A program made the position numbers and the translations under genes. A stretch of 64,000 bases of DNA. Origin: Nonlabens sp. (GTDB lineage: Bacteria > Bacteroidota > Bacteroidia > Flavobacteriales > Flavobacteriaceae). Below are positions 39,492 through 42,512 of the stretch, in pieces (the first letter of the stretch is position 1; the number at the start of each line of letters is the position of its first letter). The notes under the pieces are model-generated. The model was not told the origin of the DNA and did not search any database. It was given only the letters and a program-made list of their open reading frames with translations. Location: positions 81,916-145,915 of the forward strand of contig NZ_JBDVDQ010000016.1 of NCBI RefSeq assembly GCF_039941875.1. The letters run 5' to 3'.

Positions 39492-40036
39492 AACTTTTTA
39501 TTAATTTTTGAAATTGCTTCACTTGGTCTAAATGCTGAAGGATTATCAGTACCCTTATTAAAATGAAGAAAACCTGATCTATAATCTGAACGATGCGGCA
39601 GTTCCATTTCACCTCTAAAAATATTTATTAAATCAACTGTATCTCCAGTTTGTCGTCCATTTACTGAACTTGGATCTCTCAAACCTCCAACAGCATGTCC
39701 AATAAATTCATGCTCTACTAATCTTCCAAGATTAAACATTCTTTTTGAAAAATTTCCAGTCTCTGAAACCCAACTTCCTAATGCATTTTGTCCATCAAAA
39801 TCAGCTAAATCAACGTAGGCTGTTTTAGTTTCCATATTAGTTGAACCGTACCCTATAGGATTACTAACGTTAACGGTCTGACCTGCAACTGTGACAGAAC
39901 TATCTTCTGATCCAATATTATAGCCAAATACTAATTTCCCTTCAGAAGTACTTCCATTCTTTAATTCCCCTGCTGGCGCTCGTGCTAGTTTGCAACTAGT
40001 ACCGTACAGAGTGAAGACATAAATATAATAAATCAT
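39488..40036 (-). pseudogene. Orphan toxin C-terminal fragment with HExxGH metallopeptidase-like motif
   Basis: VEHEFIGHA; first ~24 codons come from the direct repeat. Confidence 0.5.
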
Positions 40037-40123
40037 AGAAATCTTTAGACCTCAAAGGTTTCTTATTTTCTTTTAAAAATTATTCTATTTTATTCAAACT
40101 CGGTATTCCCTAGAAACGAGTAC
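39965..40123. repeat. Direct repeat copy A (~160 bp)
   Basis: 29/30 identity at 39969-39998 vs 42260-42289 and 51/52 at 40017-40068 vs 42315-42366. Confidence 0.9.
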
Positions 40124-40160
40124 GAGCGTTTGCGCAGTAAATCTATAATTAATTTCATAA

Positions 40161-40190
40161 AAAAGGAAAGTTGTTTCTAACTTTCCTTTT
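40161..40190. terminator. Terminator hairpin after JAB-toxin immunity gene
   Basis: AAAAGGAAAGTT-GTTTCT-AACTTTCCTTTT. Confidence 0.75.
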
Positions 40191-40206
40191 CCATGATTGT
40201 GCATAT

Positions 40207-40248: not shown

Positions 40249-40737
40249 TTAATCGCATTTTCTAATCTGAGAATCGACTAAATGGTAACAATTTTGAGTA
40301 TCCTTTTTAATAAGCCAGGCAGAAATATCTCTAAAAGAAATAACAGATTTACCTACGTAATTACTCAAATCTATATTAAAATCAGTTTTAAATAATAAAT
40401 CGTTTTGTTTATTGATTACTACAAATACAACATTATTGTTAATGACGGTTGAAAGTATGGCTTTTTCCTGATAATTATTCAATTCCATCAGATTAGCAAT
40501 TTTACCTTGAGTGACTAAAATGTAATCATTTTCCTTAAAATCAACATACCAATTAAACTTGTTTTTATTGTTTTGACAGGTATCCTTTTTACCAATAATG
40601 TTCTCCAATTCTTTTATCAATTGTTCGTTCTTAAAAAAAACTAGATTCGAGTGTGTTGTTGAATTTTCCTTTTGAGCATAACAGAATAAAGTACAGAAGA
40701 AAATTAATACAAATATTTTGAAATTGAATGATCTCAT
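40249..40737 (-). CDS. Exported hypothetical protein, candidate immunity to JAB toxin
   Basis: Sec signal (…FCYA-Q); ATGA overlap with toxin stop. Confidence 0.65.
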   Translation of the reverse strand: MRSFNFKIFVLIFFCTLFCYAQKENSTTHSNLVFFKNEQLIKELENIIGKKDTCQNNKNKFNWYVDFKENDYILVTQGKIANLMELNNYQEKAILSTVINNNVVFVVINKQNDLLFKTDFNIDLSNYVGKSVISFRDISAWLIKKDTQNCYHLVDSQIRKCD

Positions 40738-41654
40738 AATTTAAGTTTTTTTTGTGCTGGAGCATCTATTATTATGGTATTTAATTCAAAACTTACTGAG
40801 TTCTTATCAAAGTCCTTATACTCATTTATAAACGGAGAATATATTTCAAATCTAGGTTTGAAACCTAGTCTTTTTTCGAAGATTCCTGCCGAAGAAATAT
40901 CCAATGGTGATGGGGCTAAAAAAGGATCAGGATGAGAATGTACATGATGTAATAATATTTTATGCCTTTTGGATAAAATATTTATGCTATACTCTGCATT
41001 TGATTCAAAAGATGTGCTGATATATTTAATATCTGAAAACCAATTTGAATAAGAGTGTTCACTGTCCGAATTATCTGTAATAAATTCAAACAAAGCTTTG
41101 TTATCTTTTACTTTAGTAGTTTCTATATTTTGTATTTCCCTAATTGTTCCCTCATCATCAATATGTGTTGTATTTTCAATTTTATCTAAAACACCTTTCT
41201 CAACATTTATTGAATTTCCTGTTTCTTTACCTTCATAATCTAAAGCAATAAGTTTATCATGCTTATCATTTGTAGCCCTAATAAATGCAATTTTACCATT
41301 ATCATCTATACCATAATCATCTTGTACTACTTCAGGAGCCATCCCAGTAGGATCGGTATACATCACAGGATTATTAAACGCATAAGCATACGACGACCAT
41401 TCAGGCATTTTTTCCGCCAGTGGATCAACACTCATCCATATACTTAAACTAGGGTCATAATAACGTGCTCCATAATAATACATACCGGTCTCGCTGTCCA
41501 GTTCTTTACCGTTAAATTTGAACTCGGTCTGGTAATATGATATTGAGGTTTGCTCTGCCATGGTCTCTCCAAAGGGTAAGTTAAGAAAAAACTGGTACAT
41601 ATTACCGTTTACGTCTGTTAACGCATTTGTGGTACCTAAATGGTAAATAGGTTT
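40734..41654 (-). pseudogene. Headless Rhs-core fragment with C-terminal JAB/JAMM (Tox-JAB1-like) toxin domain
   Basis: In-frame upstream of the ATG at 41600: HLGTTNALTDVNGN; then PFGE, FNGKELDSETGMYYYGARYYDP, NNPVMYTDPTG, HSHP-x6-S-x2-D. Confidence 0.85.
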
Positions 41655-42119
41655 TTAAAAGCTACAACTGCTAATTTGGTTTTTTAGGAAGTTTATTTCC
41701 TTTGATTCATCTTTTACTATTGTAAAATTGAACCATGTATCATCCTCGCCTTGATAATAGTCTATTTGATCTGACTTGTACTGCTTTGAATAGACTATTG
41801 AAGCTTCTGGAACACCACTCGAAAAAGCTTTCATAGGCAACGCAACTATACGTTTACCCTTACTAACAAAAGATATAGACTCAGAATTTAAGTTCTTAAA
41901 CCTATCCTCATCTTCTTTTGTTTTCAGCTTCACATAAAGCATAGTCTCATCGCGGCATATTTGATCAATTTCAAAAATTATTTCATCCTGATTCGTAGAA
42001 ACAGTAAGTTTTAATGAGCTATTTTCGAATGACTGACAAGAGACAATACTAACGCTTATAGTTATGATATTTAGGCTCAAGATTAACGCTCGTACCGAAC
42101 ATATTCGTTGTAGTACCAT
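41655..42119 (-). CDS. Hypothetical lipoprotein, candidate immunity protein (cassette 1)
   Basis: Hydrophobic stretch ending IVS-C; overlaps upstream short ORF; start uncertain. Confidence 0.55.
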   Translation of the reverse strand: MVLQRICSVRALILSLNIITISVSIVSCQSFENSSLKLTVSTNQDEIIFEIDQICRDETMLYVKLKTKEDEDRFKNLNSESISFVSKGKRIVALPMKAFSSGVPEASIVYSKQYKSDQIDYYQGEDDTWFNFTIVKDESKEINFLKNQISSCSF

Positions 42120-42318
42120 ATAATTTAGTTATTTCAGATAAAGTAAAAACTTGGGGTTTTACATATATACCATTTTTTGAATATAAATAAGTAATTCCAT
42201 CTTGACTTCTTCCGTAAAACACAGCGGAATTGGTATTTCCAAATATCACATTCGTTTCTCCTGCTGGCGCTTGTGCTAGTTTGCAACTACTACCATTACC
42301 GTACAGAGTTATAAACAT
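42049..42318 (-). pseudogene. Short orphan toxin-tip-like fragment fused to repeat-encoded peptide
   Basis: First ~21 codons come from direct repeat B; position parallels cassette 3. Confidence 0.35.
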
Positions 42319-42419
42319 AAATATAATAAATCATAGAAATCTTTAGACTTCAAAGGTTTCTTATTTATTTTTAAATTATTCTTATCTACTCCAACTATGT
42401 ACTCGATAGAAACGAGCAC
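42256..42419. repeat. Direct repeat copy B (~160 bp)
   Basis: See copy A. Confidence 0.9.
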
Positions 42420-42512
42420 CAGAGGTTTTGTAAACTTGCGATAGTAGTTTTATTGATTAATTAAAAGATTCTTAATTGTCAAAGAGAACAACGCCTAAAA
42501 CGAATAGAAAAT

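Follow-up and report, generated by a model that had tools for sequence, protein, structure and literature searches.

Tox-JAB-1 was catalogued by Zhang et al. 2012 as a toxin domain limited to Bacteroidetes and linked to RHS repeats, with a signature of NxxxE, HxH, S and D, and the lipoprotein Imm65 was described as its partner, in "strict association" with it (Biol Direct 7:18, PMC3482391). The same authors guessed that toxin JAB clades, in which the ubiquitin-tail tunnel residues are lacking, may be RadC-like nucleases (PMC3482391). A literature search found no paper on Tox-JAB-1 or Imm65 after that 2012 catalogue, and no activity, binding or localisation measurement for any protein of either kind.

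Orphan rhs-CT/immunity modules are familiar from Enterobacteria, including Salmonella, E. coli and Serratia, where they lie downstream of main rhs genes. Among gut Bacteroidales, Ross et al. are said to have described in 2019 orphan immunity clusters, located on mobile elements with recombinases, that reportedly serve as an acquired interbacterial defence against T6SS effectors.

The locus compared here with these systems lies in a window of 64,000 nucleotides (the whole stretch of DNA analysed) from Nonlabens sp. The favoured reading, to which a probability of roughly 0.6 is given as a whole, is that it represents an orphan cassette with an exported cognate immunity protein and a tip that would act outside the cytoplasm, and that its role in this genome would be one of immunity only.

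Organization of the locus

The JAB cassette is one of three toxin/immunity-like units set between housekeeping genes, with lgt and a DUF192 gene flanking the island on one side and a T9SS cargo gene and secDF on the other. The features of the cassette and its immediate surroundings are as follows.

41655-42119, minus strand: upstream 154-aa lipoprotein-like ORF with the lipobox SIVSC, its stop abutting the Rhs frame
41651-40737, minus strand: Rhs C-terminal cassette frame (core remnant plus Tox-JAB-1 tip), an open frame of 305 aa
41340-41576, minus strand: TIGR03696 match (Rhs-associated core domain, model positions 3-76) with DPTGM at its end
41354-41340, minus strand: DPTGM autocleavage-type motif, at the end of the TIGR03696 match
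41115-41339, minus strand: tip residues 1-75, beta-rich subdomain (DDYG.D.NGKI...VEKG.L), conserved across the family
40785-41114, minus strand: tip residues 76-185, predicted JAB/JAMM catalytic domain (PF15659, invariant E/H/H/S/D, AF2 model)
41060-41058, minus strand: E94 within NSDSE, the upstream NxxxE glutamate, 40 residues before the HxH motif
40940-40899, minus strand: HSHPDPFLAPSPLD, an exact fit to H-x-H-x7-S-x2-D
40737-40784, minus strand: C-terminal tail of the tip (…APAQKKLKL)
40734-40737, minus strand: ATGA overlap of toxin stop and partner start
40249-40737, minus strand: partner gene of 162 aa, overlapping by ATGA, probable cognate immunity protein
40737-40675, minus strand: partner signal peptide with predicted cleavage CYA↓Q (mature part 40674-40252)
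40578-40576, minus strand: partner C54, invariant in 8/8 family members
40257-40255, minus strand: partner C161, kept in 7/7 full-length members
40155-40196, minus strand: intrinsic-terminator-like hairpin and T-run, 53 nt past the partner stop, closing the transcription unit

The Rhs frame starts on the codon right after the TAA stop (41657-41655) of the upstream ORF, which is probably the immunity gene of a preceding decayed cassette. The first ATG of the frame, at 41600, would give a product of 288 aa, and a 288-aa ORF is what gene callers record (P0002). Terminator-like hairpins at 42544-42516, 40196-40155 and 38919-38903 (minus strand) bound the island and divide it into two units, six hairpins being found against 1.1 expected in shuffles, and the cassette labelled A appears to share one transcription unit with the JAB cassette. 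A sigma-70 promoter scan performed no better than on shuffles, and a strict Bacteroidetes-type promoter pattern (TTTG…TAnnTTTG) has no match within the island.

A repeat of ~170 nt, with a mean column identity of 84%, stands ahead of the two other cassettes (42230-42470 and 39950-40160, minus strand) and gives them a shared start and a leader, …LYG..SCKLA.APAGE, which occurs just twice in the genome. The 89-aa ORF of the upstream copy is out of frame with the shared ATG because of a 1-nt insertion after that ATG. An HEFIGH motif is present in the downstream copy (40036-39488), after which comes an ORF for an exported protein of 184 aa.

Identity and predicted fold of the tip

Residues 26-104 of the frame match the Rhs core model TIGR03696 with 84.8 bits (cut-off 32.5, E 4.4e-24), and the remaining 201 residues (41339-40737) constitute the tip. 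Within it, residues ~73-144 score 24.3 bits with Pfam Toxin-JAB1 (PF15659), above its cut-off of 21 (E 4.6e-5), and 26.6 bits in a genome-wide profile search. By pattern alone, H-x-H-x7-S-x2-D is estimated to give ~0.2 chance matches when 64 kb are translated in six frames. Among 1.8 billion representatives searched, 133 relatives of the tip were found, and across 43 aligned homologues the sole invariant columns are F84, F86, E94, H134, H136, S144 and D147.

Compared with the PDB, the family profile matches AfJAMM (E 5e-4) and RadC (E 6e-3), as well as the core ends of Tc/Rhs proteins. An AlphaFold2 model of the tip, built from the alignment, reached a pLDDT of 94.8 and a pTM of 0.87. When this model was compared with PDB representatives using VIA, JAMM1 of P. 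furiosus (5ld9) was the best match, with a Z of 9.4 and an rmsd of 3.4 Å over 101 residues; below it came BRCC36, Sst2/AMSH, Rpn11, CSN5, AfJAMM, CBASS Cap3, a bacterial Ubl-deubiquitinase and RadC (Z 6.6). JAMM/MPN proteins fill every one of the top ~22 places in this comparison, and the alignments cover model residues ~75-185 throughout. Foldseek against the PDB gave weak E-values (7e-3 or worse), with top hits that are again all JAMM proteins, the VIA result being the clearer of the two. For the beta subdomain, tip residues 1-75, no solved fold in the PDB was matched.

Many tip homologues end in a basic tail (…IT.PKKKN / PRRKKK). The tips as a whole are acidic, with a median pI of 5.3 (5.15 in the window copy), and cysteine is absent from 37 of the 43. 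Taken together, the NxxxE/HxH/S/D signature, the PF15659 score above cut-off and the JAB (deaminase-like alpha+beta) fold of the model identify the tip, as judged from sequence and prediction, as a bona fide Tox-JAB-1/JAMM-fold domain. RadC, a proposed nuclease, turns up in both the structural and the profile comparison as well, and the fold therefore leaves the choice between peptidase and nuclease unsettled.

What the initial annotation had seen in the letters of this locus holds. The DPTG autocleavage motif ahead of the tip is recovered as the DPTGM that ends the TIGR03696 match; the exact JAMM pattern of HSHPDPFLAPSPLD is now backed by PF15659, the invariant residues, the profile match to AfJAMM and the model; the coupled downstream gene with a Sec signal peptide is borne out by the ATGA overlap, the CYA↓Q site and the invariant +1 Gln; and JAB domains are indeed a recognised class of Rhs toxin, Tox-JAB-1 being listed as RHS-linked (PMC3482391). 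The designation of the locus as an Rhs-JAB toxin stands for the JAB tip and the core end. It does not stand for a deployable toxin, as this is a 5'-truncated orphan cassette in an assembly without an Rhs shell.

Orphan status and genome context

The assembly, 99.98% complete in 24 contigs, contains no match to the RHS repeat PF05593 or the YD repeat TIGR01643, and none to PAAR, the T6SS sheath protein VipB or the Bacteroidetes-type Hcp (TssD). Only two Rhs-core matches occur genome-wide, both in short frames, of 306 and 361 aa. The window frame keeps just the last ~100 residues of the core, with no shell and no N-terminal trafficking part. P0083, an Rhs-JAB relative of 1081 aa composed of a signal peptide, DUF6443, core and tip, has no alignment with the genome ahead of its residue 793 and matches just the two short frames, the alignment at the JAB locus covering window positions 41642-40875. 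A main rhs gene or a T6SS elsewhere in the genome was accordingly rejected, given the lack of repeats, PAAR, VipB and TssD and the restriction of P0083 matches to short frames, in an assembly whose 24 contigs could conceivably conceal a repeat-rich rhs gene.

The locus is, with very little doubt, a displaced orphan Tox-JAB-1 cassette. It shows the 5' cut within the core, the preceding immunity gene and the intact pair of tip and immunity gene that characterize orphan rhs-CT/immunity modules; no main rhs gene sharing the core for recombination was found, the two short frames being the sole core matches in the 24-contig assembly. From the make-up of a full-length Rhs shell toxin it retains the DPxG[LM] core end, and it lacks the repeat shell, the trafficking part and the delivery machine. 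The toxin half is undeliverable in this genome, which offers it neither a shell nor a signal peptide nor a T6SS.

Rhs cores were found in 61 of 151 genomes of Flavobacteriaceae, many of them as arrays of a main gene plus orphans. The single genome searched from the same genus has no PF15659 match. Contig 23 of the assembly that holds the window encodes another shell-less Rhs-core protein, of 355 aa (L002, 1387-2953); its tip is zincin-like (LHELGH) and is followed by a 165-aa lipoprotein-like ORF.

Predicted export of the partner and of its counterparts

The partner opens with MRSFNFK, a hydrophobic stretch and CYA↓QKE, which together make up a Sec signal peptide, as called by inspection, alignment and a home-made heuristic rather than by SignalP. 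In Bacteroidetes, the substrates of signal peptidase I follow a Q-rule, with Gln at +1 (PMC5837995). The +1 residue of the partner, Q22, is invariant in 8/8 family members, as this rule predicts, and the protein therefore fits a signal peptidase I substrate (PMC5837995). The cleavage site reads …SFG↓Q in most members (five without any Cys), …CYA↓Q in the window copy, MISC in P0136/L012 and LSAC in L011; in the window site, …TLFCYA↓QKE, an F before the Cys makes a poor lipobox. The conservation of Cys54 and Cys161 is consistent with a periplasmic disulfide. The partner is thus predicted, very probably correctly, to be exported.

Neighbourhood analysis of Tox-JAB-1 homologues, proposed in the initial annotation as a check, was carried out. 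Seven further Tox-JAB-1 loci were read in five genomes, and in each the downstream gene opens with a signal peptide, mostly with a lipobox as well; with L011, L012 and L015, an exported partner is present at 10/10 other tip loci examined. BLASTP places those Tox-JAB-1 partners in six unrelated families. The partners of the other window cassettes, of L002 on contig 23 and of two non-JAB cassettes of L012 are exported too, and by a simple heuristic a signal-peptide-like partner follows 12 of 19 sampled Flavobacteriaceae Rhs tips (~63%), against a background of 33% of small ORFs. Since most non-JAB Rhs tips of this family also have an exported partner after them, export is no peculiarity of JAB partners, and its cause may lie in how the lineage delivers its toxins rather than in JAB chemistry. 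The exported partner that the annotation had pointed out is real at this locus, and is neither new, the lipoprotein Imm65 having been known since 2012 (PMC3482391), nor peculiar to JAB.

Among the sampled loci L018-L046, tips of ~190-310 aa follow DP[DST]G with a variable next residue and have an exported partner in 12/15 cases, and tips of ~110-150 aa follow DP[LF]GL and have partners without a signal peptide in 4/4. Long and short tips may represent two Rhs classes with different target compartments. At a further locus (L010, 1-1674), a JAB tip remnant of 92 aa is followed by three tandem paralogous genes for exported partners ending in …GMCCF, two of them 59% identical and the third cut by the end of the locus; this is a poly-immunity array.

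Complete relatives and the site of action

Signal peptides start the complete relatives of the tip, namely P0004/L011, P0018, P0023, P0047, P0121 and P0083. All of these except P0083 are mini Tox-JAB-1 toxins of 310-380 aa (P0004/L011 at L011 3509-4666), composed of a Q-rule signal peptide, an N-domain of ~60 aa, the last half of the Rhs core and the tip, with no RHS shell. The N-domain (NPF.EFGY…TLS.GKY.EF) is conserved and has no Pfam match. Most close homologues of the tip are, like the window copy, cut within the core.

Immunity proteins are generally found in the compartment in which their toxins act, as with Tae/Tai, Tle/Tli and colicin M/Cmi on the one hand and the cytoplasmic CdiI and nuclease-colicin immunities on the other. 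Because immunity usually sits where the toxin acts, the exported partner would point to the periplasm or envelope, as the initial annotation had reasoned, and its interpretation is reasonable and partly supported. Circumstantial and not decisive support comes from the Sec export of complete relatives, by tips that are acidic and nearly Cys-free, and by nearest folds that are peptidase-type JAMMs. Acidic, almost Cys-free tips are unlike typical nucleases, pI being weak evidence on the type of target. On balance, an extracytoplasmic target is slightly favoured, at odds with the RadC-like nuclease guessed in 2012.

That guess forms the basis of the strongest alternative, in which the tip would be a RadC-like JAB nuclease with a cytoplasmic nucleic-acid target, and the exported immunity protein would intercept it in the periplasm or guard the producer after Sec export. 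Zhang et al. 2012 argued for it from toxin JAB clades without the ubiquitin-tail tunnel residues (PMC3482391), and RadC is indeed among the profile and structural matches; moreover, the toxin has to cross the periplasm anyway. However, exported immunity proteins are a mismatch to a nuclease, no import domain is evident in the tip, and the closest folds are peptidase-type JAMMs, with a Z of 9.4 against 6.6 for RadC. The acidity of the tips and the general knowledge that immunity proteins occupy the toxin's compartment of action also speak against a cytoplasmic nuclease, which is considered unlikely.

A more specific proposal can be put forward tentatively, at somewhat less than even odds: Tox-JAB-1 tips would be the first JAMM/MPN-type zinc peptidases to act outside the cytoplasm, cutting an (iso)peptide bond of the Bacteroidota envelope, for example in the stems or cross-links of peptidoglycan or where a protein is anchored to a glycan, and the Q-rule partner would have a new immunity fold. 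The high-confidence tip model, the very small immunity family co-varying with the tip and the Sec signals of complete relatives are what the locus adds, and together they make a periplasm-acting JAMM peptidase a concrete, testable hypothesis.

The partner as a probable cognate immunity protein

A single-sequence word-index search with the 162-aa partner found the protein itself alone; homologues came to light in the neighbourhoods of tip relatives, and a profile search among 5.8 billion clusters then gave a family of 8 clusters. Related loci were collected with a 10-sequence alignment, which gave two genome loci, and with a metagenome scan, which gave three. Partner relatives adjoin the same tip subfamily within 10 nt in L011 (a Flavobacteriaceae MAG), L012 (an uncultured Flavobacteriaceae genome) and L015 (a metagenome contig), so that the family directly follows this subfamily in four independent loci, in which tips are 43-64% and partners 29-40% identical. 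On two metagenome contigs, L015 (1705-2166) and L016 (741-989), a further orphan Rhs fragment begins after the partner homologue, and the pair thus sits within longer orphan arrays elsewhere.

No family in Pfam or NCBIfam matches the partner or any of 9 Tox-JAB-1 partners. An AF2 model of the partner from 8 sequences had a pLDDT of 42 and was unusable, and an ESM Atlas search returned chance-level scores (0.78). The family is a very small, unnamed, new immunity family that co-varies with the tip.

The ATGA overlap, and homologues that lie no more than 10 nt from tips of one and the same subfamily, make it likely that the partner is the cognate immunity protein. It could instead be an unrelated secreted or accessory protein travelling with the cassette, given that it has no recognisable domain and no usable structure, that its family comprises 8 clusters only and that, by the heuristic, one third of the genome's small ORFs look exported. 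Such a passenger is quite improbable in view of the ATGA coupling, the position after the tip that is kept in four independent loci despite divergence of both genes, the same layout at all other Tox-JAB-1 loci and, in L015 and L016, the orphan Rhs fragment that comes next, as in toxin/immunity arrays.

Proposed explanation

In the orphan-cassette reading, the terminal ~100 residues of an Rhs core, including the DPxG cleavage motif, and the Tox-JAB-1 tip behind them would represent a displaced cassette. The tip, a predicted JAMM-type zinc hydrolase, carries an additional beta subdomain at its N-terminus, and its gene would be translationally coupled to that of the putative cognate immunity protein, which would be exported by Sec, cut by signal peptidase I before Gln22 and probably hold one disulfide. 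In complete relatives, the toxin itself would be Sec-exported, either as a long Rhs protein or as a mini form. We infer that the freed tip would attack an extracytoplasmic substrate of neighbouring Bacteroidota, most likely at a peptide or isopeptide-type bond in the envelope, and that the periplasmic immunity protein would bind and block it. What works in this genome is probably the immunity gene, shielding the cell from JAB-armed neighbours, and the intact tip would be a silent reserve or relic.

It is very doubtful that the 288-aa product from the ATG at 41600 is made and acts alone as a free-standing cytoplasmic JAB enzyme with the core remnant as its leader: the catalytic residues and the entire tip are intact, the unit is bounded by the hairpins at 42544-42516 and 40196-40155, and gene callers record the ORF (P0002), but neither a start nor a trafficking context is present, the frame sets in midway through the core just as in orphan modules, the core is truncated in most close homologues too, and a cytoplasmic enzyme would be out of reach of neutralisation by the exported partner.

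Comparison with known systems

The closest counterparts are the Tox-JAB-1/Imm65 pairs, with which the locus shares the PF15659 tip, the signature, the Bacteroidota lineage, the Rhs core and an exported, strictly adjacent partner (PMC3482391). Strict adjacency to the tip, a trait of Imm65, is found for the window partner and for its homologues in L011, L012 and L015. Unlike the catalogued pairs, the window copy has neither RHS repeats nor a signal peptide on the toxin (PMC3482391). The partner would also differ from the lipoprotein Imm65 in having a signal peptidase I site, …CYA↓Q, with no clear lipobox, and its 8-cluster family is apparently a separate one; Imm65 is described as an alpha+beta protein with a YxC motif, and no YxC is conserved in the alignment of the partner family.

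Tox-JAB-2 (DUF4329), exemplified by the tip of E. coli RhsD, is likewise a JAB clade used as an Rhs tip, and differs from Tox-JAB-1 in its Pfam family, its immunity family (Imm-NTF2-2) and its wider taxonomic range. The JAMM/MPN+ isopeptidases, including AfJAMM, PfJAMM1, Rpn11, CSN5, AMSH, BRCC36 and the bacterial Cap3 and Bub deubiquitinase-like proteins, have the same fold as the tip model, with Z of 6-9.4 over ~100 residues, and, as far as the alignment tells, the same E…HxHx7Sx2D zinc site. These enzymes are cytoplasmic and act on ubiquitin-like tails, whereas the tip family is Sec-exported and has an added beta subdomain of 75 residues, a basic tail and periplasmic partners.

With the enterobacterial orphan rhs-CT/immunity modules, the locus has in common the 5' truncation inside the core, the preceding immunity gene, the intact tip/immunity pair and the short array. 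It differs from them in its exported immunity proteins and in a genome where neither a main rhs gene nor an RHS repeat nor a T6SS could be detected, so a role as a recombination reservoir has no partner here. The Bacteroidales orphan immunity clusters resemble it in an immunity gene kept without a usable toxin, with protection from the toxins of neighbours as the likely benefit, but the three cassettes here stand between housekeeping genes with no mobility gene.

The locus itself is an ordinary orphan cassette and a useful example, and experiments would be better served by a complete relative such as the L011 form with its signal peptide. Measured against these systems, it is a new example of the pairing catalogued in 2012 and no new kind of system; its new elements are modest, namely an orphan copy without a delivery system, an immunity family of 8 members that has a site for signal peptidase I in place of a lipobox, and the mini-form relatives.
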